From NCBI RefSeq assembly GCF_024502345.1, contig NZ_JALDNN010000001.1: a stretch of DNA of 64,000 bases; one strand, written 5' to 3'. Position numbers and translations under genes: made by a program. This document shows positions 23,617-52,626 of this stretch, piece after piece (positions within the stretch are counted from its first letter, which is position 1; each line of letters opens with the position of its first letter). This stretch comes from Escherichia coli. Its GTDB lineage: Bacteria; Pseudomonadota; Gammaproteobacteria; Enterobacterales; Enterobacteriaceae. The notes beneath the pieces were generated by a model. That model had not been told where the DNA came from, ran no database searches, and saw nothing but the letters and a program-made list of their open reading frames with translations.

Positions 23617-23845
23617 TGTGGGATGCAAATAAAGTTTCATCCTAACCCTAAAAACAGAGAGAAACGTCGCGCGCTCTCCTATTCATAAAAAATCCCTTTT
23701 ATATCAGTATGTTGTGAGCACTTACACCCGAGACTGGATCGTTTTGCCTTTCATGGGAGAATGATTAAGGGCGCTAAAGTATCATCCTAATTTTCGCCCA
23801 GGCTCGAAAAATACGGTAAATGGTGAAAATAAAGATTCATCCTTT
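23617..23845. repeat. Tn7-like left end with three spaced TnsB-binding-type repeats
   Basis: ATAAAGTTTCATCC (about 23626), TAAAGTATCATCC (about 23776), ATAAAGATTCATCC (about 23829). Confidence 0.7.
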
Positions 23846-24138
23846 TCCGATGTTGCCCGTTCCAACACGTAAGCAGTCAGTCAGAAAAAACACATAGATC
23901 CAATCCCTAGCGAGCATTGAGCTCTCTCATCCGTGCCAACTGCTCCAACCCTTGGACGCCCTAAATGCTTACCCAAAAAAATCAACACCTTCTTTTAAAA
24001 ACACAATCAAAAATGACACCCTTATATCCATTTAACCTAAACAGCCTTCCCCCCACTGCACTAGCTAGGGCTCGTAGTTCGGCGCAAGGCTGAAGTCGCT
24101 TGGCTGCTTCGCTGTGCAGATCCATGACCCACTTTCCA

Positions 24139-25302
24139 TCAAACTCCCGGTTGTAGTTCCACAAGCATCTCGCGAGTCTTGCCGGCCCGCTCCACTAACA
24201 AGACCACAACATCTCCAACGTTCTTGTCGTCTAGCCGGGCCTGTAATGTGGTGACGTCGTCGACGGCGATACCGTCGATGCTGATAACGCGATCGCCGGG
24301 CACGATGCCGCCTGCGGTGACCTCGACGCCGACGAGCCCGGCCCTGTGCGCCGCCGAGCCCGGCGTCACGCGCAATACGAATACGCCCTTACTGCCGGTC
24401 AGCGCCTGCAGACGCGCGTTGAGCTGCTCATCCACCTCGATGCCCAGCGCCGGACGGATGTACTTGCCGGTCTTTATGAGTTGCGGCACCACGCGCATGA
24501 CGGTATCGACCGGCACCGCAAAGCCGATGCCGGCCGAGGCGCCAGACGGACTGTAGATGGCGGTATTGATGCCGATCAGCCGCCCAGCCGAATCGAGCAG
24601 CGGGCCACCGGAATTGCCGGGGTTGATAGCGGCGTCGGTCTGGATCAGGTGGTCAATGGCCGGGCCACTGGCGTCGCCGGAAAGGGTGCGGTCAAGCGCC
24701 GAGACGATGCCGGTGGTGAGCGTCCAGTCGAGCCCGAAGGGATTGCCAATGGCAAAGACCTTTTGCCCCACCTTGAGATCGGCACTGGTGCCCACCGGCA
24801 CCGCCGGCGGGCGCTTGAAGCCGACGCCAATCTTGAGTACCGCGATGTCGTGCGCAGGACTAGCGCCAACGAGCGCAGCCTGATAATCGCGACCGTCGGC
24901 CAGTTTGACCGTGGCAGACGATGCCCCCTGGATCACGTGGAAGTTGGTCACCACGTGGCCGGCATCGTCCCAGATGAAGCCGGAGCCGGTGCCGCGCGGC
25001 ACGGAAAAGACATTGCGCGACCAGACGTGACGCACTAGTTGTGCCGTGGTGATGTAAACCACCGACCCGCGCGATTTCTCGAACAGCTCGATGGTGGTTT
25101 TTTCGTCGGCGGCCAGGTCGCCGCGCGGCGTCACCGTGCGCTCCTGCGTTTCGTGGGGACTGAACCAGGCTTCGATGGCGGGCAGGAACTGCCACAGCAG
25201 CATGAGTGCGGCGATGCAGCCAGTGATGACGAGCCAGCGCCGGATGAAGCGGTCCGGCGCCGGGCGGCTGTAGGGGTCGGGGTAGGTCACGTCATTCTCC
25301 AT
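24139..25302 (-). CDS. degP: DegP/HtrA-family periplasmic serine protease
   Basis: 387-aa ORF with trypsin-like catalytic motif GNSGGPLLD and a C-terminal PDZ-like region. Confidence 0.85.
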   Translation of the reverse strand: MENDVTYPDPYSRPAPDRFIRRWLVITGCIAALMLLWQFLPAIEAWFSPHETQERTVTPRGDLAADEKTTIELFEKSRGSVVYITTAQLVRHVWSRNVFSVPRGTGSGFIWDDAGHVVTNFHVIQGASSATVKLADGRDYQAALVGASPAHDIAVLKIGVGFKRPPAVPVGTSADLKVGQKVFAIGNPFGLDWTLTTGIVSALDRTLSGDASGPAIDHLIQTDAAINPGNSGGPLLDSAGRLIGINTAIYSPSGASAGIGFAVPVDTVMRVVPQLIKTGKYIRPALGIEVDEQLNARLQALTGSKGVFVLRVTPGSAAHRAGLVGVEVTAGGIVPGDRVISIDGIAVDDVTTLQARLDDKNVGDVVVLLVERAGKTREMLVELQPGV

Positions 25303-25309
25303 GTTGAAA

Positions 25310-26299
25310 TCAGCGCCAAAGGCCGCCGGTGCGCCAGCGTGGCGGACGTGGTGATACGGTCACCTCGGGGACGAAACGGGCCGATGGAAACGGCGGCATC
25401 GCGGGCGGCGGAGCAAGTTCCAGCAAGCGCTCAATGCGTTCAGCCGTCGCCGGATGCGTGCGCAACCAGGAGGGTTCCGGATTGCCCCATCCGGGCAGCA
25501 GCCAGGCGCGCCAGGAGCGGCTCACCCGCTCGATCTTGGCGAGCGCCGAGGCCAGCCCGTGCGGGTCGCCGGTCAATTCGGCAGCGAGCCGGTCGGCGTC
25601 GAATTCGCGCACCCTGGACAAGCCCAACTGAGCCAGCAAGGCCAGCTGTGGCGCGACCGCCAGTAGAAGCAACGCGGGCCAATTGACTTCCGCGACTCCA
25701 AGCAGCAGCGCTGGCAAGCTGAGCACGATCGCAAGCTGCCCCAGCAGGGCCAGCAGATGGGTCAGCCGGCTGATGGAATCGGCCAGGCCCATGACACGCA
25801 AATCCTCGTTCGCAATATGCGCGATTTCGTGGCCGAGCACGCCGGTCAACTCGCGGGGCGTGAGGCTACGCAGCAGGCCGTCGGTCAGCGCGATGGCCGC
25901 GTGATGCTTCGAACCGGTGGCGAAGGCGTTGACGACCCCGCTGGGCACGTAGTGCGGTACCGGCACGGCAGGCAGCCCGGCCCGCGCCGCCAGTTCGCGC
26001 AACACAGCCCAAAGATCGGGCGCTTCATCCGGGTACAGGGGGCGTGCGCCATACAGCCGCAAGGTCAGTCCGGAGGCGGCCGCCGGTTCGAGCAGCAGGG
26101 TGAACCCCGCGGCCGCAAGCGCCAGCCACAGCCCGCCGTCACCCAACAGCAGGCTGCCAGCGACGGCGGCAATCCCGAGCAGGGTCAGCACCAACAGCGC
26201 GGTTTGCAGGCGATTGAGCCAGCGATGCCGCGCGCCGACATCCTGCGCGTGGCGCAGATCACGACTGATCATCTGAGCGTTCCCCGGCGGTCCGGTCAT
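25310..26299 (-). CDS. M48-family zinc metalloprotease (HtpX-like)
   Basis: HEXXH motif in LGHEIAHIANEDL; hydrophobic N-terminal segments. Confidence 0.8.
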   Translation of the reverse strand: MTGPPGNAQMISRDLRHAQDVGARHRWLNRLQTALLVLTLLGIAAVAGSLLLGDGGLWLALAAAGFTLLLEPAAASGLTLRLYGARPLYPDEAPDLWAVLRELAARAGLPAVPVPHYVPSGVVNAFATGSKHHAAIALTDGLLRSLTPRELTGVLGHEIAHIANEDLRVMGLADSISRLTHLLALLGQLAIVLSLPALLLGVAEVNWPALLLLAVAPQLALLAQLGLSRVREFDADRLAAELTGDPHGLASALAKIERVSRSWRAWLLPGWGNPEPSWLRTHPATAERIERLLELAPPPAMPPFPSARFVPEVTVSPRPPRWRTGGLWR

Positions 26300-26762
26300 C
26301 GCGCTCGCGCAGCAGCCAGTAAGTCACCCCGAGCGCCAGCGTAGCACCTGCGAGCGCGGCGATCTTGCCGGGGCTCGCCTCGGGGTCGAGGATCACGAAC
26401 TTGCGCGCCAGCGCGATCAGGCCGATGAGGATCACCGTCTTGACCTGGATGATGCTGTCCCGACGCAGCGCCACGCGCACGATGGAATGCTTGAATTCCA
26501 TGGCGATGAGCAGCGTCATGATCATGGCGAACACGGTCTGGAAGACCTTGTGATCAAGCGGATTGAACGCGTCGAGGATCAGCAGCGTGAAGACAATGGA
26601 CATGAGCTGGAGCAGCGACACCACGATGATCACGGCGATCACCGCAGACAGCACGAGCGCGATGACCTGCTCGAAGCGCTCGTAGAACGTCATCACGGCC
26701 CATTGGGCGCGAAAAGTTTTCGTCAGCGTAGGTTGCTTTTCATTCATCGCCATTTCCCTCAA
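26259..26762 (-). CDS. psiE: PsiE-family inner-membrane protein (phosphate-starvation-inducible)
   Basis: 167-aa multi-pass membrane ORF with a PsiE-like hydrophobic pattern. Confidence 0.75.
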   Translation of the reverse strand: MREMAMNEKQPTLTKTFRAQWAVMTFYERFEQVIALVLSAVIAVIIVVSLLQLMSIVFTLLILDAFNPLDHKVFQTVFAMIMTLLIAMEFKHSIVRVALRRDSIIQVKTVILIGLIALARKFVILDPEASPGKIAALAGATLALGVTYWLLRERDDRTAGERSDDQS

Positions 26763-27610
26763 TTTACATTGGCAACCATAACTTGGTTGCGCCCTTGTCT
26801 TTTTGCCTGGTAGAGCGCGCTGTCCGCCTGCTGCATCACCTGCTCGGAAGAGTTTAAGCGGACGTCGAGGGGAGCCACCCCCATGCTGGCGCTATAGCTG
26901 ATCGACACCTCTCCACACACCAGCGCTGTCGCCGCAACGTCCTGACGAAATCGCTCCGCCCATACTTGGGCGTCTTCTATCGATGCCGCTTCCAACAACA
27001 CAGCGAATTCCTCCCCCCCCCCAATCCGTGCAGCCATGTCGGTTGCGCGAACATGTTCCCTCAACCGTGAAGCAAAGTGCTTGAGCACCTCATCGCCGCA
27101 TCCGTGCCCATAGGTATCATTGATGCGCTTGAAGTGATCGATATCGCAGAGCACAAGTGCTGCTTGTATCTCCGGGCTGCGTTTGAGGCGCGCCCATTCC
27201 AGCTGTAATCGTTCGTTAAAAGCCCGCCGGTTCGACAAGCCGGTCAAGGGGTCGGTGATCGCCATGCGCAGCAACCGCTGCTCCATTTCCTTGCGAGAAG
27301 AGATGTCGAGCAGAGTGCCCACCATCAATTGCCTGCCCGTGTCACCCAGCCAACGACCGCGATCCAGCACCCAAATCCAAACGCCGGATCGATGACGAAC
27401 GCGGTACTCGCACTCCAATCGCTCCGACGGATTTTCTTGGTAAGCGCGCACCTTTGCCAGAACGACCGGTAAATCCTCCGGATGAATACGCGCTTGCCAT
27501 GCGGCATGGGTGGCGCCAATCTCCTCGTCGGAGGTCAAGCCGAACATCGCCAGACTGCGGGCAGAAAGCCTGAAGCTGTCGGTGGCAAGATCCCACTCCC
27601 AGAATCCCAA
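26759..27610 (-). CDS. PAS-GGDEF protein, putative diguanylate cyclase
   Basis: 283-aa ORF with GGDEF-domain signatures (RIGGGEEF active-site motif, DHFKRIND) after an N-terminal PAS-like region. Confidence 0.75.
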   Translation of the reverse strand: MGFWEWDLATDSFRLSARSLAMFGLTSDEEIGATHAAWQARIHPEDLPVVLAKVRAYQENPSERLECEYRVRHRSGVWIWVLDRGRWLGDTGRQLMVGTLLDISSRKEMEQRLLRMAITDPLTGLSNRRAFNERLQLEWARLKRSPEIQAALVLCDIDHFKRINDTYGHGCGDEVLKHFASRLREHVRATDMAARIGGGEEFAVLLEAASIEDAQVWAERFRQDVAATALVCGEVSISYSASMGVAPLDVRLNSSEQVMQQADSALYQAKRQGRNQVMVANVN

Positions 27611-27779: not shown

Positions 27780-29498
27780 TCATGGTCTATCCCCGCCTGA
27801 CTGACTGAGTGCCTGCCGTAATTCCTCGATCCGGTGGTCGACTTGGTCGGCGTTGATGCCCAACATCAACAGTACCTGCTCGGCCAGTCCCAGTCCCGCA
27901 GCCAGGTACAACGGGTACAGTCTGACATTGGGCAGATTACGCAAAAGCTGGGCATCCGTTACGCGCTCAGTGGCCACCACCACGGACAAGCTCAGGCGGC
28001 GGTCGAGAACCGCCTGAGCGATACGCAGGGCCGTCTGCGGACGGGCAAACGTCAGCACCACCAGGCGGGCATGGGCCAATCCGGCGGCGGCCAGGGTGTC
28101 GAGCCGACTGGCATCGCCATACGACACCGGCGCCCCCATAGCACGCCCCGCTTCGACCCGTTGGCGGTCCGATTCCAGCAGCAAATGCGGTATGCCTGCC
28201 AGGCGCAGCGTTCGGCTCAGCAGCAGCCCGACGTCATCCGCCCCACAGATGATCACATGGTCGCGCAACGACCGCGCCCGCTCGGCGACTTCGCCTTCTT
28301 CGGCCTGCGGTGGCTGACCGAGTGCGCCCGAGCGGCTGAAAGCCCGCGCCCATCGGTCATGGTGTCGGATCAGGAGCGGTGCCAACCCCATGCTCAACAC
28401 CAGCGCCACCAGCATCGGTTGCACCATGGTGGCGGCGATCAGGTGCTGCTGCATGACCATGCCCAGGAGCAGCAGCGCAAACTCGCCGCCATGACCCAGC
28501 ACGATGCCTGCGCGCCAGGCGTCGAGCGCCGACAGGCGGGTTGCGCGCAGCGCCAGAAAGTTCAGCCCCATCTTGAGAGGCACCAAGGCCAACAGCCAAC
28601 CCAGTACCGCCAGCGGTGCGGCCACGATCTGCGCGGTGTCCAGCTGCAGGCCAATGGTCACGAAGAACAGGCCCGACAGCACATCACGAAAGGGCTTGAG
28701 GTGGCTTTCCATGTGGTGCCGGAAGTCGCTCTCGCCCAGGACCATGCCGGCGAGAAAGGCCCCCAGGGCGGCGGATACGCCGACGGCGTGTGCAGCAGCG
28801 GCTGCCGCCACGACCACGCACAAGGAGACCAGCACGAAGGATTCTTCGTGGCCCTGCCGCGCCACCCAGCCCAGCAGGCCATGCAACAGACGACGCGAGG
28901 CAACCGCCGCTGCCGCGAACAACACCAGCACGCCCAACACTTCGAGCAGCACGCTCTCGATCTTCGGCGAGTCGCCGCGCGCCCAGATCGCCAGCAGGGC
29001 CAGCAGGGGCACGCTGGCCAGGTCCTGAAAGACCAGCACGGCGATGGCACTGCGGCCGTGGCGGGTGGTGAGCTCGCCTTGGTCGGCCAGCTGTCGGCTG
29101 ACCAGCGCCGTGGACGACATGGCCGCTGCGGCGCCGAGCAGTGCAGCGCTCTGAGCTGGCTGACCCAACCCGATCAGCACCAGGGTCAGTGGCGCGGCCA
29201 CGACGACCATCTGCAAGCTGCCGGACGCCAGTACGGTCTTGCGAGTGAGCCAGAAGTGCCCCAGCGAGAATTCCAGTCCGACCATGAACAGCAGCAGGGC
29301 CACACCCAGTTCGGATATGAAAGTCAACGCCTCTCCCGGCGCGATCACACCGCTGACCGAGGGGCCCAGCAAGGCGCCGACGGCGAGGTAACCCAGCAAG
29401 GCGGGTACTCTGAACGCCGCCGTCGCCACCACCGAGAGGCTGCACGCCGCCAGCAGGATCAGGGTAGTGCCGAGCAAATCCTGCGGATTCCACGCCAT
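27780..29498 (-). CDS. kefB: KefB-like cation/proton antiporter with C-terminal TrkA-N domain; first five codons derive from the IS21-family end
   Basis: 572-aa ORF with multiple TM helices and a Rossmann-like VIICGADDVG; start ATGGCGTGGAATCCGCAG lies inside the IS terminal repeat plus target duplication. Confidence 0.8.
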   Translation of the reverse strand: MAWNPQDLLGTTLILLAACSLSVVATAAFRVPALLGYLAVGALLGPSVSGVIAPGEALTFISELGVALLLFMVGLEFSLGHFWLTRKTVLASGSLQMVVVAAPLTLVLIGLGQPAQSAALLGAAAAMSSTALVSRQLADQGELTTRHGRSAIAVLVFQDLASVPLLALLAIWARGDSPKIESVLLEVLGVLVLFAAAAVASRRLLHGLLGWVARQGHEESFVLVSLCVVVAAAAAAHAVGVSAALGAFLAGMVLGESDFRHHMESHLKPFRDVLSGLFFVTIGLQLDTAQIVAAPLAVLGWLLALVPLKMGLNFLALRATRLSALDAWRAGIVLGHGGEFALLLLGMVMQQHLIAATMVQPMLVALVLSMGLAPLLIRHHDRWARAFSRSGALGQPPQAEEGEVAERARSLRDHVIICGADDVGLLLSRTLRLAGIPHLLLESDRQRVEAGRAMGAPVSYGDASRLDTLAAAGLAHARLVVLTFARPQTALRIAQAVLDRRLSLSVVVATERVTDAQLLRNLPNVRLYPLYLAAGLGLAEQVLLMLGINADQVDHRIEELRQALSQSGGDRP

Positions 29499-29586
29499 TC
29501 GGACACTCAGCCCACGCTGATCCGGACACCTGTTCCACGGCCATTCGGACAGGCAGTCGGAGCGCAGCGACGCAGGGGTTGCATTG

Positions 29587-30342
29587 TTAGTCTGAGGTGC
29601 CCGGTGTCGTCAATTTCTTCACCCGCTTTCTCATCGATTCGCCCTTGAGGTTGATCCGATAAGCGTTGTGCACCAGGCGGTCGAGGATGGCATCGGCCAG
29701 GGTTGGATCGCCGATCAGTTCGTGCCAGTTGTCCACGGGCATTTGGCTGGTCACGAGGGTCGAGCGCTGGCCGTAGCGGTCGTCCAGTAGCTCCAGCATG
29801 TCGCGGCGCTGTTCGGCGGTGAACGGCGCCAGGCCCCAGTCGTCGAGGATCAGCAGGTCGGTCTTGGCGTAGCTGCTCATCAGCTTGGCGAAGCGCCCGT
29901 CGCCGTGGGCTAGGCCCAACTCTTCCAACAGGCGCGGCAAGCGCAGGTAACGCACGCTGTAGCCCTCTCGGCAGGCCTGGTGTGCCAGGGCGCAGGCCAG
30001 CCAGGTTTTACCCACGCCAGTCGGACCGTTGATGATCAGGTTGAGTCCGTCGCGCAGCCACTGGCCGCTACCCAGTTGCAGGATCAAGCCCTTGTCCAGC
30101 CCGCGCGGGGCACGGTAGTCGATGTCTTCGAGGCAGGCGCTGTGCTTGAGCCGGGCCTGGCGCAGGCGGCTGCTGAGGCGCTTGTCGTCGCGTTCGGTCA
30201 GTTCGCGGTCGACCAGCAGGCCGAGGCGTTCCACGAAGCTCAAGCTGTCGATGTCCGGGGTTTTCAGTTGCTCGGCGAGTGCCTTGAGCATGCCGGTCAG
30301 GCGCAGGGTCTGGAGCTTGTCCAGGGTCGGATGGGGCAGCAT
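29587..30342 (-). CDS. istB: IS21-family helper ATPase IstB
   Basis: Start MLPHPTLDKLQTLRL... (cat at 30340-30342); Walker [12 protein letters not shown]. Confidence 0.85.
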   Translation of the reverse strand: MLPHPTLDKLQTLRLTGMLKALAEQLKTPDIDSLSFVERLGLLVDRELTERDDKRLSSRLRQARLKHSACLEDIDYRAPRGLDKGLILQLGSGQWLRDGLNLIINGPTGVGKTWLACALAHQACREGYSVRYLRLPRLLEELGLAHGDGRFAKLMSSYAKTDLLILDDWGLAPFTAEQRRDMLELLDDRYGQRSTLVTSQMPVDNWHELIGDPTLADAILDRLVHNAYRINLKGESMRKRVKKLTTPGTSD

Positions 30343-30359
30343 GGTGGGATTCCTTGTGT

Positions 30360-31874
30360 TTAGTGGTAGTAGCCGGGGCCGCGCAGGTTGGCGTGGTCGT
30401 CCGGCAGCAGGGGCAGGTGCTGCTGGGCCAGCGGCAGATTTTCCAGCCCCTGGCGCAGGATCGATTCGAGGCTCTTGTAGCTGCACGCACCGAGGCTGAG
30501 GGCGCGACGGCAGGCCAACTCCAAGCACACTTCGCCATGGGTCTTGCCCAGGCGCAGGATGCCCAGGCAGGCCCGGTAGCCTTGGGTTGGGTGGATGCGC
30601 CGTTCGAGGATGTGGCTGATCACGCCGGCCGTGTTCGGCCCGGTCTGCTCAGCCCAGCGGATCAGCCGTTGTGGCGTCCACTCGGCGTGCTCGCGATGGC
30701 TCTTGGGCATGTGCTCGGCCTGTGTGCTGTGCCGGCCCTTGTGCGGTGAGCGAAGGTGGCTGGCCACCCGCTGATTGGCGTGGAAGCACTCCACCGTGCG
30801 CGCTGTCAGGCGTACTTCCAGTTGTTTCTTCACCAGTTGGTACGGCACCGAGTAGTAGTGCCCATCGACCTCGACGTGGTAGTCGATGTGCACCCGCGCC
30901 TTCTTCCACTCGGCATAGACGTAGGGCTGCTCCGGCAGTGGGCGCAGCGCTGGACGATCCAGGGCTTCGAAGGCCGAGTGCCGGGAGCCCGGCAGCTTGC
31001 GAAACGGTCGTCGGTTGAGCCGCTCCAGCAATAAGGCGATGGCGCTGTTGAGTTCGTCCAGGGAGAAGAACTGGCGGTTCCTCAGCGCGGCGAGGATCCA
31101 GCGCTCGACCACCTGCACGCCGACCTCGGCCTTAGCCTTGTCGCGCGGCTTACGCGCCCGCGCCGGCACCACCGCCACGCCATAGTGCTCGGCCAGATCG
31201 CGGTAGCTCGGGTTGATGTCCGGCTCGTAGCGATGGCTCTTACTCACCGCGCTTCGCAGGTTGTCCGGCACCACGATCTCCGGCACACCGCCGAGAAAGG
31301 AGAAGCAGCGGGCATGTGAGCCCAGCCAGTCAGGTAACTGCTGCGACCAGGTGGCTTCGGCGAAGGTGTAGCTGGATGCACCAAGCACCGCGACGAACAC
31401 CTGCGCCTGGCGGATCTCGCCGCTGTGGCGGTCGATCACCGGCACCGTCTGCCCGGCGTAGTCGACGAACAACTTCTCGCCAACGCGATGTTCCTGGCGC
31501 ATCACCACGTCCAGCTTGCCCTGCCAGGCTCGGTAGTGCTCGCAGAACCAGCTGTACTGAAAGCCTTTCGGCTGGCTCAGGCGATACTCCTGCCAGAGCA
31601 GCGCCAAGGTCACGCCCGGCCGGCGTAGCTCGGCGTGGATCATGGCCCAATCGGGCAGCGGTCGTTGCTCGGAGGGTACCGCCGCCGGTGGCGGGAACAG
31701 CTGCTGCTCCAACTCCGCATCGGACAACGAACAGGGCCAACTGAGGCCGCTGGCGGCAAAGCGACAGAGGTAATCACCGGCACTGCTGTGGCCTATGCCC
31801 AGACTGCGGGAGATCTTACGGACAGACAGCCCGCAATCGAACTTGAGGCGCAACACCTCACGGATTTTACGCAT
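30360..31874 (-). CDS. istA: IS21-family transposase IstA
   Basis: Start MRKIREVLRLKFDCGLSVRKISRSLG... (cat at 31872-31874); HTH then DDE region; the track ORF extends upstream into trx. Confidence 0.85.
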   Translation of the reverse strand: MRKIREVLRLKFDCGLSVRKISRSLGIGHSSAGDYLCRFAASGLSWPCSLSDAELEQQLFPPPAAVPSEQRPLPDWAMIHAELRRPGVTLALLWQEYRLSQPKGFQYSWFCEHYRAWQGKLDVVMRQEHRVGEKLFVDYAGQTVPVIDRHSGEIRQAQVFVAVLGASSYTFAEATWSQQLPDWLGSHARCFSFLGGVPEIVVPDNLRSAVSKSHRYEPDINPSYRDLAEHYGVAVVPARARKPRDKAKAEVGVQVVERWILAALRNRQFFSLDELNSAIALLLERLNRRPFRKLPGSRHSAFEALDRPALRPLPEQPYVYAEWKKARVHIDYHVEVDGHYYSVPYQLVKKQLEVRLTARTVECFHANQRVASHLRSPHKGRHSTQAEHMPKSHREHAEWTPQRLIRWAEQTGPNTAGVISHILERRIHPTQGYRACLGILRLGKTHGEVCLELACRRALSLGACSYKSLESILRQGLENLPLAQQHLPLLPDDHANLRGPGYYH

Positions 31875-32046
31875 GGACAAACGCTCCACGACGACCTCTC
31901 TGCTTCGAAAAAGAGGTCGATGGTAGTGAATAAATCCTGCGTAGCTGCCTGCCTGGAAAGTGTCCGGATGGCCGTGGAATCGGTGTCCGGATGCTCGTGG
32001 AATAAGTGTCCGGATCAGCGTGGAATCCGCACAAATCCTGCATCGG

Positions 32047-32487
32047 TCAGCGTCCCACCTGTGCAGAGGCCCAGCGCACGATGTCCTGCGAGCCCATGGC
32101 GCCTGCCTGGCGGGCGATCTCACGTCCGCCCTGGAACAGGGCGAGCGTCGGAATGCTGCGGATACCGAACTGCGCGGCCAGGTGGGGCTCAGCCTCGGTG
32201 TTCACCTTTGCCAGCCTGATCCCGGGTTCGAGCTGGCGCGCGGCTTGTTGAAACTGCGGCGCCATCATCTTGCACGGCCCGCACCAGGGCGCCCAGAAAT
32301 CGACCAGCAGCGGCAGATCGCTGCGCTCCACGTGGCGCGAGAACGTCGCCGTCGTCAACTCGATGGGCTCGCCGGTGAACAAGGGCTGCTGGCAGCGGCC
32401 GCAGTTGGAACGATCCGCGAGCTTGGCGGCCGGCACGCTGTTGATGGACTGGCAATGTGGGCAGACGATGTGGAGTTCATTTTTCAT
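32047..32487 (-). CDS. Thioredoxin with N-terminal zinc-finger extension (Trx2-like)
   Basis: 146-aa ORF with CPHC...CGRC N-terminal cysteines and active site WAPWCGPCK. Confidence 0.85.
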   Translation of the reverse strand: MKNELHIVCPHCQSINSVPAAKLADRSNCGRCQQPLFTGEPIELTTATFSRHVERSDLPLLVDFWAPWCGPCKMMAPQFQQAARQLEPGIRLAKVNTEAEPHLAAQFGIRSIPTLALFQGGREIARQAGAMGSQDIVRWASAQVGR

Positions 32488-33628
32488 GGTTCGCTTGCTT
32501 GGACTGCGGTGAGGTTGCCTCGCTTCGGATCACCGACATCGCCGACCAATTTACGCCTTTGATCCAATCGTTCCCGTCTTCGCTCACGCCGGCATCTTCC
32601 ACGTGAGCCGCAATGAAGGCTTCGGCTTGAATGAGCCCCGCTCTGACAGCATCTATCTTATTAGGCATCCGCAGGATTTCAGCAGCGCAGCCTGCATCCA
32701 GCCCATCCACCCGGATAAGCAGAAAAATGCGGCGCCACAAGTGCGGCATACCCTTCATCAGGTCGAATGCAAATGCGAATTCGCTCGATCTGTCACCAAT
32801 TTCCTCCTGTTCGGCGATTGCTGCTGGGTCGGGAAGCCGACTATCAGCCATGACGTCGGCCAGGCTGAGTGCGTCATCAGGCTGATAAAACTCGTAGAAC
32901 TCTTCCTCTACCATGGCCTCCGCCATGTCCTGCGCATCCGCTTCGACCGGCGCATCCAGCGAAACGGCCTCGCCATATTGCCGGCTGTTTGCCACTTCGC
33001 GATCAATGACGGCAAAAAGATGCTTCAAAAGATCGAGGTAAGCGGCATTTTCTTCTGGAACGGATGTCCATACCGATTCAGCCAGAGCAATCGCTTCGTC
33101 CACCACGTCGTGCAGCGTCGGATAATCGCGAGGCAAATCACCGGCGGCATGCAGATAAGCCAACTCGCGTTGCGCAACGGCCTCAACCTTCGGCAGCAGC
33201 GTCTCGATTATCCCGCGTGCTTGCTGGACGACAGAGGCAGGTTGAGTGTCGATCCGCGCCTTGAGCTCGCGCAAGCGTTCACGACGCGCCTTACGCTTGA
33301 TTTGATCCTGAGCGCTCAGCCGATCAAAGTGCTTCTTGGCCTGCCGGAACAACGCCTGCGCTAGCATGTGCGCGAGAGGCGTCAGATCGTTATGCGATGC
33401 AGTGACGCTGACGATTTTTTTGCCCGGCAAGTGCATGTGGCCACTGGCCGTTAAGCGAGATCCTTTTTTCGCGCGTTCGAGGACGATTTGAAGACGTACC
33501 GAATCTTCGGAGCGCTTTTCGATCAGCGGCTTGAGAGCGGGTTCAACCGCTTTTTCTACAGACATTCGCCAAGGTTCATGAAATTCTTTTTCGACGAGTC
33601 GATAGCTATATTGTATACGCATGCTCAA
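32477..33628 (-). CDS. Hypothetical protein of the heat-resistance island
   Basis: 383-aa ORF MSMRIQYSYRLVEKEF...; acidic C-terminal half; no family recognised with confidence. Confidence 0.55.
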   Translation of the reverse strand: MSMRIQYSYRLVEKEFHEPWRMSVEKAVEPALKPLIEKRSEDSVRLQIVLERAKKGSRLTASGHMHLPGKKIVSVTASHNDLTPLAHMLAQALFRQAKKHFDRLSAQDQIKRKARRERLRELKARIDTQPASVVQQARGIIETLLPKVEAVAQRELAYLHAAGDLPRDYPTLHDVVDEAIALAESVWTSVPEENAAYLDLLKHLFAVIDREVANSRQYGEAVSLDAPVEADAQDMAEAMVEEEFYEFYQPDDALSLADVMADSRLPDPAAIAEQEEIGDRSSEFAFAFDLMKGMPHLWRRIFLLIRVDGLDAGCAAEILRMPNKIDAVRAGLIQAEAFIAAHVEDAGVSEDGNDWIKGVNWSAMSVIRSEATSPQSKQANHEK

Positions 33629-36322: not shown

Positions 36323-36343
36323 GATGTTGGACTCCAATTGAAG

Positions 36344-36802: not shown

Positions 36803-36896
36803 ATCGGTTCTCCTTGAACAATGCCGGTGAATTGGATGACGCACCGAACAGAGCCGCCGGCTCACTCTGAATAGCGCCTATTACTTTTCGTTTCTA

Positions 36897-38231: not shown

Positions 38232-38240
38232 GTCGTGCCG

Positions 38241-42543: not shown

Positions 42544-42634
42544 GCTCCTTGAGAGGACTGATTTGACGAGGCGCCGAAGGTCACGGCGCCTCGCCATTCA
42601 CTTGGTTTTTCTGTAGAGAACAAGCCGATCGGCG

Positions 42635-43204: not shown

Positions 43205-43239
43205 GTCACACCTCCAGAACAAAAATTGAAGACTCTCGC

Positions 43240-43521: not shown

Positions 43522-44026
43522 ACCACCCCCACAAGTTCCGTCGTCACGCGGCCTCGCCTGAGGAAGTTCTTGCAAGACTTTGCAAGATATTGCGCCTAAT
43601 ATGCCAAAAGTCAAGAGTCAACATCCAGCGATCTGCTGGCCGATTGATGTGACTCAAATCTTCAAGGACGGTATGCCAGGGCGGGCCGGTCCGGCGCAGG
43701 GGACGGTGGGTTGATCGGGACCTTGCGGGCGCCGCCCACGGCCGCAGATCAAACACCGATCCTCACGTTGTAACCGAGCGCCCGCAGCCCCTTGCTCGTG
43801 CGCATGTTCCTTGGCGGAAACTCGTCTGGGCGCGCCCAGCCGACGATTTCCCCGAGGCTGCTCAGGCCAATGTGCGGAATTGCCCAGTCGTCGCTGCGGA
43901 TCGCGTTCCAGAGTCGGGCCGAAAAACCTCCGTTGCCCCAGACAACGTAGTTCAACAGTATCCGTCCTGCCAACACACCTTCCCGACACCGCCGCCGAAG
44001 GCCATGGCCCATCAAGCGGATTTTCC

Positions 44027-44399
44027 ATGCCCCCTCAGCGCCGTACCTACAGCAAATCTTTCAAGGCCCAGGTCATTCAGGAGTGTTCTGAACCCGGTGC
44101 CTCCATCGCAAACATCGCCTTGGGCTACAGCCTCAATGCCAACCTCGTCCACAAATGGATTCGGCTGCATACCCAGAAAACCACGGCTATCCAGCCAGCG
44201 TTCATCCCGTTGCCTTCTCAAATGCTCGGCGCGGGATCGCATGCTCAAGTGCGCTGCTGCGATCATGAGTTTGATCCAGTCGGCCCGTAATAATGGGCAC
44301 GATCCGTATGCCTATCTCAAGGATGTGCTGACACGGTTGCCGACGCAGCGGGCGAGTGAGATTGCAGAGCTGCTGCCGCATAGGTGGCATCCGGCATAG
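44027..44399 (+). mobile_element. IS66-family remnant (TnpA-like N-terminus fused to the last residues of a TnpC-like transposase)
   Basis: MPPQRRTYSKSFKAQVIQECSEPGASIANIALGYSLNANLVHKWIRL... then ...NGHDPYAYLKDVLTRLPTQRASEIAELLPHRWHPA; internal deletion inferred. Confidence 0.5.
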
Positions 44400-44659
44400 T
44401 CGCGCAAGACGGTCTGCCCGCACGCTTACGTTCAACAGCTCAAGCACCGTCCGCCCTTCGCGGGATCGTTGCCGCCAGAGCCACACGCCGAACTTTTCCA
44501 CCTTGTCGTCGCCGGCCTGCGGTCAGTCAGGCAAGCCCAGGTGCTTGTTTTCCTGCTTGATCGCGTGGTCTCGGATCGCGTGCACCCGGGAAACGGCATC
44601 CACGAACTGCCACCATCTCTTAGCTTGGCGGGGTCAAGCCAGCCGGGATGCCCGGACGG

Positions 44660-46497
<1,838 letters not shown>

Positions 46498-46505
<8 letters not shown>

Positions 46506-48000
46506 TCCATCTTCCTATCAATCGAATGAACGCAGTGGTCAGTGGTGCCACCCTGCTTTTTTCCAATCCACAACGCTTTTCCAGCTCCCAGCGCCTAGAC
46601 GTTATGCCTGTCTGTACATCCTTCAGCATCGCTGCAGTCAGGCGACGGATCTGATACTCGCCGACGGACTCGGCATAGCGATCCAGGAAGGTGCAGCAAA
46701 GAGGCAATTGATCGAGACGGTGCTCGACTGATGCCCGATGGGGTAGCTGCTGCAGGAACCAGTTGCGACTCCTGCGCGGAAGGCCCAGGTCTTCTTCGCT
46801 ACCTCTACCAATCCGGATCAGCAGGCGCACCAACCTTATGTCACGCGCTCGCCAGTCGATGTGGCTGTTGTTGCCCTGTCGGCGCTGCCTGACCTGGTTC
46901 GCAACCATCAGCCAGTGTCGGTCATGACGATAGAGCCAGGCGTAACATGCCCCTGCTCCGTCTTGCCTGGCTGCCTTGGCTCCACCGTGATTAGCCAGTG
47001 CTTGCAGCCAAATGGCTCGGTACTGCTGCTTTTGCTCAAACTCAGCAGGGAGCAGCTGCACTGACCGCTCGGAGGCAAGGTCGACCTGGCGAGTCTTCGC
47101 CTCGCTGATCAGCTCGCCAGCATGCTGGCCAGGGCGCAGGCTGGTCCAGACGATCAGATGCTGCAGCGCACTGAATCCCTTGCGATGCTTCCTGAACATC
47201 GCCAACAGCCAAGGTGGAGGCTCTCCGGATGTCAGCAGACCGTTCGCAGCAAGCCAATCCCTTTGATGGGATGCCAGGATCTTCTCCCAGATGACTTCAG
47301 CCCTGACCTGCCGGCCTCGCCTGGCGCCGCACTCTGTAGCCAGGTACCGGTACAGGTTGGTCCAGCGTCCGTAGCCAGGCGATTGCACCTCTTCGAGCGC
47401 CAGCAGCTGCATAGCAGCCTTGGCGAGCCTGATAGCCTCTTCGCCCACGGGACTCACGCGAAGATCACGGGGCAGAAACAGTGGAGAGGCTGTATGAAAC
47501 TCGTGCCGCTGCGCTCGACGGAACGGGATAGGTGAGTTCAGGAGCTGACAGCCATGCTCGGGACAGGCATCTATCCCTTGAATCTGCCAGCTGCGCCGCC
47601 AGTAGGGTTCACCGTAGCGCGCAGCCATATCTTCAAAGCAGATCGGGCAGTAACGCAGCCAATCGGGCCACTTGACCAAGGCCGTCGAGGCCCCAGACAG
47701 ACCAATCGTCGGCCGGTCGGGAGCAAGCATGGCCTGAAAAAGATCGGTACGGCGCTCCGGCGGAATGAAAGGGGCATAGAGCGGGAACAGCGTGTGATTC
47801 AGGATCATGCCTTCCGCATCCAAGCCCGTGTTGTTCGCCAACGCAGTCAGGTGTGTGGGCAGATCGGTGATCGCGGCAACCTTGCTGTCACCGAAAAGCA
47901 TGTGCAGCAAGGTCTTGTGGCTGCCTATCCCCAGATGTACCCGGCACCGGGCAATACCGCTGTAAAGCAGTTCGTCCGGGTAGAGCCTGGGGAAGTACAT
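46498..48000 (-). CDS. tnsD: Tn7 TnsD/TniQ-like target-selection protein
   Basis: 500-aa ORF MYFPRLYPDELLYSGIARC...; zinc-finger-like RYCPICF...CPEHGC; FRKHRKGFSALQHLIVW and YAWLYRHDRHWL blocks. Confidence 0.8.
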
Positions 48001-48001
48001 G

Positions 48002-49612
48002 TCAGCTCGCTCTCAGCAGAGGCCGTAGATCGAGGATCAAGCCAGCCTGCTTGAATCTGTCATAGGCCTCGCTTTCAGGCCCATCGGCATAACGTCGGCG
48101 CAGATCCTCCTCGGATAGGCACCCCCACTCCGTCCGCTTAACTCTGGAAATGCCGGGCCTCTTGGGAGCGTCCTGCGCGAGGTAGGCCGTGGCCTTGTGA
48201 ATCAGGGCCGCCAGCGGGATGTCCGGATTCTCCGCCAACAATTCATCGGCCATGGGAATGGCGATGTCCCTCGGGATTTCCATACCTTCGAGCAGGGCGG
48301 CCAACCGCTTTGCCTTGTCATCAGCCGGAGGGGCCGGTGGTTTAGGTTGGGGGACGCTATCCAGAGAGCGAGTCAGGGTCAGCAACCGTCCCTCGATCTC
48401 TGGCATCAGCAGGTCGTCATATTTGGCGATCAGCTCGGGCCTACCGCTCCGCAAGGCCGCCAGCATCGGATGGACCGGTTTGAACTCGTCCTCGAAAACC
48501 CTGCGCAGCAACAGCGGCTTAATGCACTCGACACCTGTCACTATCGCCCGGATCTGCGCCAGCGCGAACAGCTTGATGACGATGTCCATGACCCCTTGGG
48601 TGAGGTCGTACATCGTAGCCTCCAGTTCATCATCCAGCGGCGCCGCATTTCGCAGCCACTGATACTTCCAAAGCCGCTTCAACAGACGCTTCCAATGCTC
48701 GTCCCGAGGCAACCTATCCCAGCGGATGCTGCCCAACCCGGAGACCCGCCGAGCAGCCCGGAACGTGCGCTGGAAGAACTTGCTGGCCCGGTGGGTGCCG
48801 ACCTGAATGATCGGAACACCGATGGTGTTCACCAGCGACACGAAGAAATTGTGCATTTTTTCGGCACCACCGGAGCGTGCCTCGTTGAGGTTCTGAACCT
48901 CGTCGATGATCAGCACTCCGAGCGTGTGCAGATTGGCCAGCTGGCACATGGATGCCAGCAGACGTTTGGTACCCAGCTTCTTGCGTCCGTGGCTACGGCT
49001 GTAGTGGGTACCCAGGATCTTGTCTACTTCGTTGAAGAAGCTCAGGCACAGCTCATCCAAGTCACCGTCAATTGGGCAGTCGATCTTCAGGTAGACCAGT
49101 TGGGTGATGTCGTAATCAGGGTGATGGAGAGCTTGGGGGTACATGCCCAGAATCCGCTCCAGCGTGCGCGTCTTGCCGCAACCGGAGCAGCCGAACAGCG
49201 ACAGGCTGTTGGCCGTAGAGGAGACACTCTGGTACACCGCCGCATCCAGATCCTCCTCCTCGACACGGCGATAGCCATTCTGCAGGTGCGCATACCAGGC
49301 ACCGCTGGCCGGATTCCGACCGATGTACCCTTGACGGATCATCAGGCTGATCTTGCTCTCCAGCTCCAAGTGATGGCTCAGCGGCTGGAAGAAGCCGTGC
49401 AACAGGCGGGCAATCGCATGTGCCCTGAGCCGACCATCCAGAAGCGCCTCCTGCGGCTCGAAACCGGGAAGCTGCTGCAATAGATCGACCACCTCCTGCA
49501 GATCAGGAATCGGAGGCAATGCGCTGATGAGCGGATTGTCCTGATACTCGGGAAGCTGCTGCTCCTGGTAACGCGCCAGGGGAATGACTCCGCGCTGGAA
49601 TTCTTCAGTCAT
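48002..49612 (-). CDS. tnsC: Tn7 TnsC-like AAA+ transposition regulator
   Basis: 536-aa ORF with Walker A GCSGCGKT and Walker B LIIDEVQNL. Confidence 0.85.
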   Translation of the reverse strand: MTEEFQRGVIPLARYQEQQLPEYQDNPLISALPPIPDLQEVVDLLQQLPGFEPQEALLDGRLRAHAIARLLHGFFQPLSHHLELESKISLMIRQGYIGRNPASGAWYAHLQNGYRRVEEEDLDAAVYQSVSSTANSLSLFGCSGCGKTRTLERILGMYPQALHHPDYDITQLVYLKIDCPIDGDLDELCLSFFNEVDKILGTHYSRSHGRKKLGTKRLLASMCQLANLHTLGVLIIDEVQNLNEARSGGAEKMHNFFVSLVNTIGVPIIQVGTHRASKFFQRTFRAARRVSGLGSIRWDRLPRDEHWKRLLKRLWKYQWLRNAAPLDDELEATMYDLTQGVMDIVIKLFALAQIRAIVTGVECIKPLLLRRVFEDEFKPVHPMLAALRSGRPELIAKYDDLLMPEIEGRLLTLTRSLDSVPQPKPPAPPADDKAKRLAALLEGMEIPRDIAIPMADELLAENPDIPLAALIHKATAYLAQDAPKRPGISRVKRTEWGCLSEEDLRRRYADGPESEAYDRFKQAGLILDLRPLLRAS

Positions 49613-51692
49613 CCTCTTCCTCCTTGAATATCAGGTCACTGAGATCTGGGAAGGCATAATCTTCCTGCTTCTCGCCCCGCAGTGGGATCACCTCGGCTGG
49701 CTTTTCCTGCTGTGCTTTATCCGGTTTGAATGCTGTTTTCTGGCGTTCCTGGCGCTTTTCCTGCTGCTTGTTCTCGCGGATCTGGGTTCCCAGATCCTTC
49801 GTGGTCATACCCGTTTTGAGCGGACTGGCATCCTCTGCCTGGGCAACGATGGACTCGATCTGCTTCAGAAGATTGCCTCTCTCTACCAAAGCTTCCGCCG
49901 CCGCGTTGGTATCGCTACGCCGTTCCTCTCTGGACAGCAGCCAGACATCCCAGAAGGTCATCCCCCTGAAGCGTCGACTGCGGTCGGCAAGATCGCAAAC
50001 CCAGTAGTCCTTGAGACTATTGGACGGCCGCAGGTAGATGTGGTCGGCGCTACGCGGATCGTATGCGACCGTTACCCCTGTCGGCCGGCGCCCCTGGCCT
50101 CGGTGAAACCAACCCTCCCTGATTGCTTCCTGGCAGGTGTAGAAGCAGCCGAACAGTCTGATTCCCAGCTCCGAAACCGTGGCCGACTCATGGGGCAAGA
50201 GATTTATCCGCACCAGCTCCTCGGGCGCAGTACGTAACCGGCCGGTCAAGTTGGCCAAGCCCCAGTTCCACAGCATGACCGGGATGGCTGGCAGATCGCC
50301 CGGCATACCAGAGGTTCTGTCGTATTTGCTCAAGGTATGAAAGTTGTTGTGGTAGAGGATGCCGGCAATGATGATCTGGGTGAACTCGGGCAAGGTCAGA
50401 CTGGCATCAAGTCTGTAGTCGTGGCCACCCCGCTTCCGGCTGGTGGTGTCCTCGACCACACCGCTGGCATAGGGCTTGAAACGCTCCTGCACCGTCCGGA
50501 AATAACGCTCGACGATCCCCTTGGCATCTCCTCGCCTGGCCGGTGCATTCTCGATGCGAACGCCGAAGGCTTGGGAAAATGCTTCCACCTTGGTGCCATT
50601 CAGTTCGCCCTTATCGGCCAGCACCACATCCGGCAAGCCTTTGACCGGCCAGTCGCTGGCATCGATCTCCACGCTATACTGGCGGCAATACTCAACCTTG
50701 TCGGCGACCGTGTTGGCCAATGCCACCATGGCACTGACCCAGGAAGGTCCCTCGAATCCGACGTACATACCAACGACCATGCGGCTGAACACGTCGATCA
50801 CCATGTAAACGACAGGCCTGCCGACGATAAGGCTGCGATCATGTTCTGAAACCAGATAGATATCGGCGATGGTGGCATCGATCTGGTAGCGGTATCCTGG
50901 CCCCAGTGCCTCGGTCGTCGATGTACTGCTGAGCGGTCGGAAGTCCTTGGCAAAATCCACTGCGGACACCCTGCATGGCAAGGTGTCGGTGAAGTGATAT
51001 TCGCGCCCATAGAAGTAACGGAACTGCCCCAATGTAGGCAGTTCGGAGGTCGGCAGCTCCGTCAGAACAGCACGGAGCAGATTCAGCCCGGCGGCGTAGG
51101 CATCAGGAATGGACGGATGTTTTTCCTTGAGCAAACGTTCCTCGATGACCCGGCGAAAAATGCGCTCGATGTCCGGCGTGACATTGCTCCCTTTCCCCTC
51201 CATCACCACTCTGGGCCTGCCCAGCTTGGCCTGGTTCGGCTTTCTGCGCTTGCCACGGGCGCCCGAGTTGACATAGTCCGGCAAGAGGGCATTCCTGCAC
51301 ATGCCTCGCTGCCAGTAGCGCCTCAGTAACCTATACACCGTCTGATTGGTGACACCATGGCGCTCCATGATGCCTCTGACAATGAGCCCTCTGGGGCGCC
51401 GCACGAAAAGCTGGGGGTTGTGCACAAAATCCGCCAGCATTCCCCAAGCTTCATCACGCTTCTGCTGATCAAGGGAACCTTCCTCAACCTCCCGTAGGAC
51501 TGTTTCCTCGAAGGGATCGGCAATGCTCTCCAGCTCCCGCTCCATGATCAGACGCTCCAGCTCTACAATCGATATCGGTTCGGGCAACGCCGTGTCCGAA
51601 TCGATATCGATCCAGATTGCCTGCTCGGTACCGGACCAAAGCAGGCGCTTTCGCAGTTCCCCCATCCGGAACACCTGATTAACGGGCAACAC
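49605..51692 (-). CDS. tnsB: Tn7 TnsB-like DDE transposase
   Basis: 695-aa ORF with YQIDATIADIYLV, VLADKGE and GIVERYFRT blocks matching the Tn7 TnsB catalytic region. Confidence 0.9.
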   Translation of the reverse strand: MLPVNQVFRMGELRKRLLWSGTEQAIWIDIDSDTALPEPISIVELERLIMERELESIADPFEETVLREVEEGSLDQQKRDEAWGMLADFVHNPQLFVRRPRGLIVRGIMERHGVTNQTVYRLLRRYWQRGMCRNALLPDYVNSGARGKRRKPNQAKLGRPRVVMEGKGSNVTPDIERIFRRVIEERLLKEKHPSIPDAYAAGLNLLRAVLTELPTSELPTLGQFRYFYGREYHFTDTLPCRVSAVDFAKDFRPLSSTSTTEALGPGYRYQIDATIADIYLVSEHDRSLIVGRPVVYMVIDVFSRMVVGMYVGFEGPSWVSAMVALANTVADKVEYCRQYSVEIDASDWPVKGLPDVVLADKGELNGTKVEAFSQAFGVRIENAPARRGDAKGIVERYFRTVQERFKPYASGVVEDTTSRKRGGHDYRLDASLTLPEFTQIIIAGILYHNNFHTLSKYDRTSGMPGDLPAIPVMLWNWGLANLTGRLRTAPEELVRINLLPHESATVSELGIRLFGCFYTCQEAIREGWFHRGQGRRPTGVTVAYDPRSADHIYLRPSNSLKDYWVCDLADRSRRFRGMTFWDVWLLSREERRSDTNAAAEALVERGNLLKQIESIVAQAEDASPLKTGMTTKDLGTQIRENKQQEKRQERQKTAFKPDKAQQEKPAEVIPLRGEKQEDYAFPDLSDLIFKEEEDD

Positions 51693-52506
51693 TGCTCAGC
51701 TCCTGATGCATTTGATGAGAGTTGGCAACCAGGTCTTTCGGCTTCAGCTCCCGGTAAGGAGTGTCAAGATCGAAAAGGAAACAGTGCCGGGCCAGCAACT
51801 GGCGTAGCCAATAGAGCGCCTGACCGGCCTCCAGCTGGCCGGAGGTATCCAGTCCTTGGGCAATAGCGGTCAGCTTCCGGTCTGGGTGACGCTGAAACTC
51901 GAGCAGAAACAGCTGCTGGTAATGGGCGAGATCGTCCTGAGCGATGTCGCCTTCAGCATGGGCAGGATAGAGCCATTGGATATTGGCAAATGCCACCTTG
52001 GATACCTCGCGCTCCGTAACGATGACCCAGGGAATACCTTTTTCCTGCCAGTAGCGCCTTTCAAGCTCAAGCCTCTCGATAACTTCAGGCTTCTGCAGGT
52101 CGGTACTGTACTTGGCCTGAATCGCGATGCTCGGGCGCTGAGGATCTTCGAAATCCACCAGAAAGTCGCTGGTCAGTACCTGCGGGGTACCCTTGTAACA
52201 ACCGTGGGGCAGGCCAAGCTCCTCGGCGATGCGCACCGTATCTTCGACCCGCATCGGAAACTGTTCACGGATATCGGTGACATGGGGAGACCGATCCAAG
52301 GTCAGGAAGATGGCCAGTTCAAGATCGGATAGAAGATGGTGTAAACGCCGGGTCTTGCTGCCAGGCAGGCGGTGGGAGCGACCCAGCGAGGACACGTCCC
52401 TTGTGTAGATGAACGGCTTGTAGTCTGATCCCTGGCCTTGACCACGCCCGTCCTTGAGCCTTCTATCGATCTGGGCCTGGGTCAGCCCCTTGAATGTTCC
52501 AGACAT
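51679..52506 (-). CDS. tnsA: Tn7 TnsA-like endonuclease
   Basis: 275-aa ORF MSGTFKGLTQAQIDRRLKDGRGQGQGSDYKPF...HHLLSDLELAIFL...TSDFLVDF...AIQAKYS; sits just inside the right transposon end. Confidence 0.9.
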   Translation of the reverse strand: MSGTFKGLTQAQIDRRLKDGRGQGQGSDYKPFIYTRDVSSLGRSHRLPGSKTRRLHHLLSDLELAIFLTLDRSPHVTDIREQFPMRVEDTVRIAEELGLPHGCYKGTPQVLTSDFLVDFEDPQRPSIAIQAKYSTDLQKPEVIERLELERRYWQEKGIPWVIVTEREVSKVAFANIQWLYPAHAEGDIAQDDLAHYQQLFLLEFQRHPDRKLTAIAQGLDTSGQLEAGQALYWLRQLLARHCFLFDLDTPYRELKPKDLVANSHQMHQELSSVAR

Positions 52507-52562
52507 GAGAAAGCCTGCCCCCGCTGTGTCGATGACCTCAACATAGCGGATGCAGGCTCAGA

Positions 52563-52626
52563 ATGAAACTTTATTTATACGGATGATACTTTATTTATAC
52601 GGATGAACCTTTATTTGCATCCCACA
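52563..52626. repeat. Tn7-like right end with three contiguous TnsB-binding-type repeats
   Basis: Reverse complement reads TGTGGGATGCAAATAAAGGTTCATCC-GTATAAATAAAGTATCATCC-GTATAAATAAAGTTTCATTC. Confidence 0.75.

Follow-up and report, generated by a model that had tools for sequence, protein, structure and literature searches.

A heat-resistance island as the probable cargo of a Tn7-family transposon in Escherichia coli

Whether an entire island of heat-resistance and protein-quality-control genes can be carried by a Tn7-like transposon is the question raised by positions 23617-52626 of a 64,000-nucleotide stretch of an Escherichia coli contig (NZ_JALDNN010000001.1; RefSeq assembly GCF_024502345.1), the whole of which is called the window here. 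An earlier interpretation made from the letters alone (hereafter, the sequence-only reading) had claimed such an arrangement and had supposed it to be undescribed. Based on the comparisons reported below, this 29,010-bp segment very probably represents a copy of a Tn7-family transposon whose composition resembles that of Pseudomonas, with an LHR2/tLST2-type island as passenger DNA. Its G+C content is 60.8%, compared with 47% and 52% in the flanks and about 50% in E. coli. The island lets E. coli, Klebsiella, Cronobacter and Salmonella survive the heat, chlorine and pressure treatments of food processing and hospitals, and the location of one island variant on a Tn7-family transposon provides a concrete, testable route of spread. 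Tolerance to heat, chlorine or pressure has been established for related islands (PMC4563881, PMC5383660).

The supposed novelty does not hold, as the arrangement is already published and annotated in public genomes, though thinly documented. In Pseudomonas aeruginosa CF39S a Tn7-like transposon with inverted repeats, tdcA and LHR genes was reported (Almblad et al., 2021, Nat Commun; PMC8012707, Fig. 1d and text) and later restated in a 2026 review (PMC13104619), and Tn7 elements were described as flanking the tLST (Kamal et al., 2021; PMC8290217). Like the element in the window, the CF39S transposon has transposition genes and inverted repeats around the gene of the thermosensory diguanylate cyclase TdcA and genes syntenic with LHR; it differs in host and insertion site, and the two are likened here by the published description. 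The CF39S account (PMC8012707) consists of a figure panel and two sentences, without target duplications, attTn7 analysis, end anatomy, distribution or mobility test. The islands LHR1 (Mercer et al., 2015; PMC4563881) and LHR2 (Boll et al., 2017; PMC5383660) were presented as “flanked by mobile elements” with no transposon defined. Transposons are not mentioned in the Fec10 plasmid paper (PMC7984374), the LHR2 paper (PMC5383660) or the mSystems tLST paper (PMC8407380), heat-resistance cargo is not mentioned in a large survey of Tn7 cargo (PMC8649781), and a literature search pairing tLST with Tn7-like gave no match. The concept is not new and the part added here is comparative evidence, namely exact boundaries, the division into shell and cargo, ten duplication-flanked insertions, empty sites, the use of attTn7, the host range and an anomaly of the window copy.

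Ends, transposition genes and shell

The inverted terminus that the sequence-only reading had seen at both boundaries is an exact 18-nt tip, TGTGGGATGCAAATAAAG, which forms a perfect inverted pair at 23617-23634 (plus strand) and 52609-52626 (minus strand), occurs nowhere else in the window and gave two matches in none of 100 shuffled sequences. The TnsB-type motif AWAAAGNWTCATYC, derived from the repeats noted in that reading, has seven matches in the window versus 0.47 expected. A scan with this motif placed three of them in the left arm (23617-24060, plus strand; sites 23629-23642, 23774-23787 and 23829-23842), spaced across about 215 bp, and three in the right end (52561-52626, minus strand, which includes the terminal repeat; sites at 52561, 52581 and 52601), adjacent and in a 20-bp phase, while the seventh lies at 17419, isolated from both ends. 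The claimed Tn7-like asymmetry of three spaced left and three contiguous right repeats is thus borne out: the element has the asymmetric multi-site ends and TGT...ACA tips of the Tn7 family, the binding sites being predicted from the motif. Matches of the left part in other complete E. coli genomes begin at window 23615-23617 and those of the right part in other E. coli genomes and plasmids end at 52626-52629, irrespective of the sequence beyond. Because the matches of independent genomes begin and end there, both boundaries are base-exact.

Five full-length minus-strand open reading frames (ORFs) in the order tnsA-B-C-D-E are located directly inside the right end, from 52506 down to 44883, as had been claimed. 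An NCBIfam scan of the five proteins returned no families, or a weak IS481 match in the case of TnsB; since it was uninformative, they were identified through the sequences of solved structures (PDB), and all five match Tn7 proteins. The intact tnsA (51679-52506; 1f1z, 2e-60) would encode the endonuclease of 5'-end cleavage and tnsB (49605-51692; 7pik, 2e-187, end to end) the DDE transposase of 3'-end cleavage and joining, the function of each Tns protein being assigned by homology to Tn7. These are followed by tnsC for the putative AAA+ regulator (48002-49612; 7mbw, 1.2e-122, residues 13-471), tnsD for the predicted selector of attTn7/glmS (46498-48000; 8glu_X, 1.3e-46, residues 3-301) and tnsE for the predicted selector of replicating or conjugal DNA (44883-46505; C-terminal domain 5d16, 1.7e-10). 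In RefSeq the last of these is named “Tn7-like element transposition protein TnsE”, and TnsA, TnsD and TnsE are named in dozens of genomes. Residues E63, D114 and K132 of TnsA are conserved in the alignment with 1f1z, and so are the TnsB residues aligned with D273, D361 and E396 of Tn7 in that with 7pik; both sets are the catalytic residues, numbered as in the established Tn7 literature. The element therefore combines separate TnsA and TnsB proteins that retain these residues with a TnsC, a TnsD/TniQ-family selector and a second selector, TnsE.

With the prototype Tn7 the element shares the order of the five tns genes inside the right end, five homologous proteins with conserved catalytic residues, TGT...ACA termini with spaced left and adjacent right sites, a 5-bp duplication, insertion at a distance of 24-25 bp downstream of glmS, with the right end on the side of that gene, as well as insertion into plasmids. 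Its Tns proteins are clearly diverged from those of Tn7 and not near-identical, as judged by eye from the TnsA and TnsB alignments. Three right-end sites are found in the window element, and Tn7 is usually described with four. The cargo of Tn7 is an integron with dfrA1-sat2-aadA1; that of the window element, unlike Tn7, is a 20-kb stress island. The G+C content of the element is 58-62%.

The limits of the cargo are drawn by the tLST1 island of strain AW1.7, in which homology to the window is confined to 24061-44139 at 81-86% identity, and which lacks the cyclase gene, cls, Tn7 ends and tns genes. It follows that the transposon shell comprises 23617-24060 and 44140-52626 and that the island is passenger DNA.

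Target duplications, attTn7 and empty sites

Complete copies of the element were retrieved from other genomes and the bases outside their tips were compared. The same ends were found at different flanks: at ten separate insertion sites, distributed over E. coli, Klebsiella and Pantoea, a perfect 5-bp duplication encloses the whole unit of about 27-29 kb, the chance of a single 5-bp flank match being 1 in 1,024. The duplications are AAATG in a CP4-like island of E. coli NZ_LR536430.1, GTTGC within a prophage integrase gene of E. coli strain 81, CCAGT within a UvrD-helicase gene of E. coli G3/10, ACGTC within an IS1 on a plasmid of E. coli 873.10, ACATG on plasmid pMEI282 and CCTTC on the K. variicola plasmid p1_020019, in addition to four at attTn7, which are GGGCT in E. 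coli TC24 and 1218KP, AGCGG in the chromosome of E. coli 873.10, GGGCC in Pantoea agglomerans and TGGGC in Pantoea sp. GD03673. The target-site duplication of the Tn7 family is present at all ten of these independent full-size insertions and not at the window copy.

In the attTn7 copies (E. coli TC24, 1218KP and 873.10 and both Pantoea) the right tip is located 24-25 bp past the glmS stop codon, with the right end proximal to glmS and with pstS or lpf beyond the left tip (glmS and pstS were identified by NCBIfam). This is the orientation-specific insertion downstream of glmS that characterizes the family, and the same spacing and orientation are known from TnsD-directed Tn7 (Tn7 pathways, PMC12153342). 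For NZ_LR536430.1 and G3/10, empty sites were reconstructed by joining both flanks through a single copy of the repeat; they occur uninterrupted, at 99.6-100% identity, in 29 and 31 E. coli genomes, respectively, and at neither of them does the 5-bp repeat pre-exist as a duplicate. Altogether, these comparisons show that tns genes and island have inserted together, as one undivided unit, into many sites, attTn7 and plasmids among them. The claim that the island is made mobile by a cut-and-paste Tn7-family transposon is supported by the proteins, the ends, the duplications, the use of attTn7 and the empty sites.

By homology with Tn7, TnsB would bind the repeated sites in both ends, TnsA and TnsB together would excise the element through double-strand breaks, and TnsC would link the transposase to a target picked by TnsD or TnsE. 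On the TnsD route the 3' end of glmS would be recognized and insertion would occur 24-25 bp downstream of it with the right end towards glmS; on the TnsE route replicating DNA, chiefly conjugative plasmids, would be recognized. Insertion would generate the 5-bp duplication. Two target pathways mean access to a safe chromosomal site as well as to conjugative plasmids, while glmS-pstS constitutes a diagnostic landing site and the junction sequences can be used for surveillance.

These data bear on two other explanations of the locus. According to the first, a small Tn7-like transposon (tnsABCDE and the right end) lies beside an independent island and the left “end” is foreign. The island does exist elsewhere, as tLST1 in AW1.7 and in about 130 other E. 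coli records, with neither tns genes nor Tn7 ends, and debris of insertion sequences (IS) separates tnsE from the island in the window. However, the duplications enclose the entire unit, tip to tip, at ten independent sites, the whole unit is absent from the empty sites, and the left arm and the right end have the 18-nt tip and the binding-site motif in common. Two unrelated elements, which the sequence-only reading had named as a possible refutation, are excluded for the element as a kind by the duplications around the whole unit, and as an account of the window they are scarcely credible. The second explanation is mobilization as a composite unit by IS1, IS5, IS26 or IS21, the Tn7 machinery being incidental. 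LHR1/tLST1 copies are edged by IS5, IS110 and IS26 fragments, as seen in AW1.7, and the literature calls the islands “flanked by mobile elements” (PMC4563881, PMC5383660). Yet the edges of the present variant across genomes are Tn7-type tips and not IS ends, no IS family present here shows 5-bp repeats together with glmS-site specificity, and the IS5 beside the window copy stands 1.4 kb away from the tip, so that this explanation is very improbable.

Distribution and related elements

The tns module with the right end was detected in 34 records from 31 of 5,426 complete E. coli genomes. Of the E. coli records, 17 have the 444-bp left arm, which tLST1 islands lack; about 130 further E. coli records, which are tLST1 islands, match this part of the window just in the last 78 bp before the DegP-like gene. 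Plasmid pKL53-L (L002 among the comparison loci, to which L numbers refer) is a hybrid with tLST1 on its left and the right half of the element at 99% identity, an IS5 fragment replacing the left end. A second copy without a duplication (TGTAC vs GGTGT) was observed in the chromosome of E. coli 2273-PO3 (L050), and its right flank is identical to that of pKL53-L; the shared flank suggests a plasmid-derived segment or recombination between copies.

Outside the E. coli chromosome, the tns module was found on 111 plasmids, of which 69 are from Klebsiella, 19 from Escherichia, 11 from Acinetobacter, 6 from Pseudomonas, 3 from Enterobacter, 2 from Salmonella (one annotated as serovar Senftenberg) and 1 from Citrobacter. 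These copies are consistent with the TnsE route, of which they are no proof. When the window variant is compared with that of E. coli attTn7 and Klebsiella plasmids (L046, L048, L055), the target selectors diverge more than the core machinery encoded in 44883-52506, identities being 92-94% for TnsD and 95-96% for TnsE versus 98-99% for TnsA, TnsB and TnsC.

The 18-nt tip was also searched in one genome per species; an estimated 9 or so of the 42 matches are expected by chance at this database size. Identical ends together with tns genes and island segments were detected in Pseudomonas saxonica, P. toyotomiensis, a Pseudomonadales metagenome-assembled genome and Pantoea, and related ends in P. 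alcaligenes, P. oleovorans, P. indoloxydans and others. Matches in Limosilactobacillus, Chlorobiaceae, Bacteroidia and similar taxa were dropped, having no similarity outside the 18-mer. The G+C content of 58-62% and the occurrences in Pseudomonas point to a Pseudomonas-type source.

ORF-less miniature elements of 327-328 bp, with identical 18-nt tips and with sites that are spaced at the left-type end and adjacent at the right-type end, were observed in P. alcaligenes NBRC 14159 (L021 6614-6941; L022 3549-3876) and P. oleovorans DSM 1045 (L031 662-988; L032 4188-4515; L034 8834-9160). Four of the five have 5-bp target duplications, and the right-type end of the one in L031 faces glmS from 24 bp downstream, the same spot at which P. 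indoloxydans (L039) carries a full-size relative. The miniatures look like non-autonomous derivatives that would be mobilized in trans. The same tip with a different interior was found in P. juntendi, P. oleovorans and Pseudomonas sp. ZH-FAD (L024 12289, L033 6902, L040 944), and the identical outside flank ACTGACCAATGC is common to the three loci, which may represent a related element at a conserved site or lie within a larger mobile unit.

The window copy and its cargo

In the window the element is bordered by TTCAC on the left (23612-23616) and CATTT on the right (52627-52631), that is, without a 5-bp target duplication. To the right it adjoins the AAATG site, the cognate one, known from NZ_LR536430.1, and to the left the interior of a type VI secretion system Tle1-Tli1 locus that is uninterrupted in strain PapRG-04-4 (comparison locus L053 7521-7640). 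Window 1-16994 is collinear with pepD to yafV of NZ_LR536430.1 and hence the element lies in the same region in both genomes; the segment adjoining the left tip differs between them, the break falling exactly at the tip. Because the two flanks are non-cognate, an empty site joining 23616 to 52627, which had been proposed as a check, is uninformative for this copy. The left junction was found in none of the complete E. coli genomes, and the reciprocal junction, with the right end at the type VI secretion site (TTCAC joined to TGACTGCTTTC), which would be a sign of a former second copy, in no record of the 5,426 genomes.

Several of these facts weigh against a transposon that simply inserted here and is still moving. 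The copy lacks the duplication and its flanks derive from two different loci, so that the present left junction arose otherwise than by simple insertion, either through an end-precise adjacent deletion or through recombination with a second copy since lost. Many E. coli copies are decayed, the left arm being kept in only 17 of the 34 tns-bearing records, tnsA broken in NZ_LR536430.1 and the left end gone in pKL53-L. The cargo is damaged, with a truncated ftsH and an inserted IS21. Finally, the case for transposition is one of sequence comparison.

An alternative built on such facts is that the window copy is a relic, Tn7-family by descent and immobile, locked in place when a rearrangement cost it the cognate left flank, the island being inherited vertically or passed on by homologous recombination or plasmid transfer. 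The missing duplication, the absence of both junctions from complete E. coli genomes, the tnsA pseudogene of NZ_LR536430.1 and the lost end of pKL53-L all speak in its favor, and so do the clusters of single-nucleotide polymorphisms (SNPs) and the mosaic segments of 87-99% identity, which show frequent homologous exchange among copies. On the other side, neither the tips nor any of the six TnsB-type sites is damaged, the five Tns ORFs are full-length and their products share 100% identity with those of G3/10, a copy flanked by a duplication; moreover, by analogy with the mechanism of Tn7, excision should need the element ends alone and a missing flank repeat would be no obstacle. A relic of this kind is unlikely, though the idea deserves some weight. 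With five genes and both ends intact, the window copy would probably still be able to move, its left target duplication having been lost.

A broader reading, which we hold tentatively and at somewhat less than even probability, is that this element, derived from Pseudomonas, is still active in Enterobacteriaceae, where it would have seeded the LHR2/tLST2-type island and be the main vehicle of its spread through glmS on chromosomes and TnsE-type capture on conjugative plasmids, that its transposase also mobilizes the 327-bp miniatures in trans and that it made the end-precise left junction of the window. If this were true, tolerance of heat and chlorine would travel on a transposon, and its landing site could be predicted.

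The possibility that the window element is a chimera of two divergent copies was considered and rejected, as it is near-identical throughout to the G3/10 and NZ_LR536430.1 elements except for short SNP clusters; with respect to G3/10 there are 43 mismatches over 29 kb.

As cargo the element carries an island of the LHR2/tLST2 type. With LHR2/tLST2 and LHR1/tLST1 this island shares a set of genes for a helix-turn-helix (HTH) protein, the small heat-shock protein sHsp20, ClpK, sHsp20-GI, YfdX1/2, HdeD, Trx, KefB, PsiE, HtpX and DegP, and the hallmark of LHR2, a diguanylate cyclase gene (orfE), is present in the window, the G+C content of about 61% being likewise in agreement. The core HTH - sHsp20 - ClpK(ClpG-GI) was found with the sHsp20 and HTH genes directly upstream of ClpK, and the accessory genes are syntenic, though the copy is not pristine. 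The sequence-only reading had described everything from tnsE to the left end as cargo with a complete island and IS debris; the description as cargo stands, while “complete” does not, since the product of ftsH has 444 aa in the window versus 609 aa in full copies, and debris occurs only in the junction zone at 43654-44882 and not at 29485-32031, where an intact IS21 resides.

All the genes of the island are on the minus strand. From the left end, the last tLST gene encodes a DegP/HtrA-type S1C serine protease (24139-25302; NCBIfam TIGR02037, 1e-84, and RefSeq annotation of identical copies), and it is followed by genes for an HtpX zinc metalloprotease (25310-26299; NCBIfam, 4e-42), a PsiE-family protein (26259-26762; NCBIfam, 2.5e-07, and RefSeq annotation) and a PAS-GGDEF diguanylate cyclase, orthologue of the thermosensor TdcA (26759-27610; GGDEF domain, 3e-49). 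The cyclase differs from WP_170981765.1 at just one of 284 translated positions (283 identical, the stop codon being counted); the latter is 97.9% identical to TdcA, and the E. coli G3/10 protein 98.2% (PMC8012707, supplement). A KefB/KefC-type K+/H+ antiporter (27780-29498; NCBIfam, 1e-92) and thioredoxin Trx-GI (32047-32487; NCBIfam TrxC, 2e-45) are encoded on either side of the IS21-family element (istA, istB; 29485-32031; NCBIfam IS21 transposase, 9e-93, and IstB, 6.5e-83), which is a secondary insertion between trx-GI and kefB with the direct repeat CAAATCCTGC at both junctions and is not present in the copies of TC24, strain 81 and P. saxonica.

Further along are ORFs for a hypothetical protein (32477-33628), HdeD (33721-34332), YfdX2 (34418-35305), YfdX1 (35408-36337) and sHSP20-GI (36344-36865), the names being taken from the RefSeq annotation of near-identical copies and, for sHSP20-GI, also from an sHsp match. 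The C-terminally truncated FtsH-type protease (36897-38231) covers positions 8-432 of the 598 of profile TIGR01241; ftsH is full length in strain 81 and 873.10 and is annotated by RefSeq as a pseudogene in NZ_LR536430.1 (L001) and G3/10. Next come the genes for a cardiolipin synthase/PLD-family protein (cls; 38241-39884; TIGR04265, 1e-85) and for the island hallmark, the AAA+ disaggregase ClpK (ClpG-GI) (39688-42597), which scores 2152.9 bits with NCBIfam NF033606 versus a curated cut-off of 1900. The genes with which the island begins, for sHsp20 (42635-43243) and an HTH/excisionase-type DNA-binding protein (43240-43614), were both matched by NCBIfam. In the junction zone (43654-44882, no strand assigned) the RefSeq annotation shows fragments of genes for a transposase and for an ATP-binding protein, and the homology to tLST1 of AW1.7 stops within it at 44139.

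SNP clusters occur at 24000-25000 and 39000-41000 of the otherwise near-identical element, with 28 SNPs in the degP-like gene with respect to NZ_LR536430.1 and about 20 in cls/clpK with respect to both NZ_LR536430.1 and G3/10, and other E. coli copies are mosaics of segments 87-99% identical. These clusters and mosaics suggest gene conversion between co-resident islands. At the trx-proximal end of the IS21 (31950-32031), repeated units of about 23 bp of the form GTGTCCGGAT...CGTGGAAT were observed, and the window is about 46 bp longer there than the copies of NZ_LR536430.1 and G3/10.

In the left flank, an IS5-family element (21279-22247), located 1.4 kb left of the transposon tip, lies between the gene of the Tle1 phospholipase effector and that of the Tli1a immunity protein. 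To the right of the transposon, a type III restriction-modification system (53900-56000) is degraded in comparison with that of NZ_LR536430.1, as the window lacks both L001 815-3187, which comprises the 3' end of a DUF4391 gene and the whole methyltransferase gene, and L001 4470-5841, inside the endonuclease gene.

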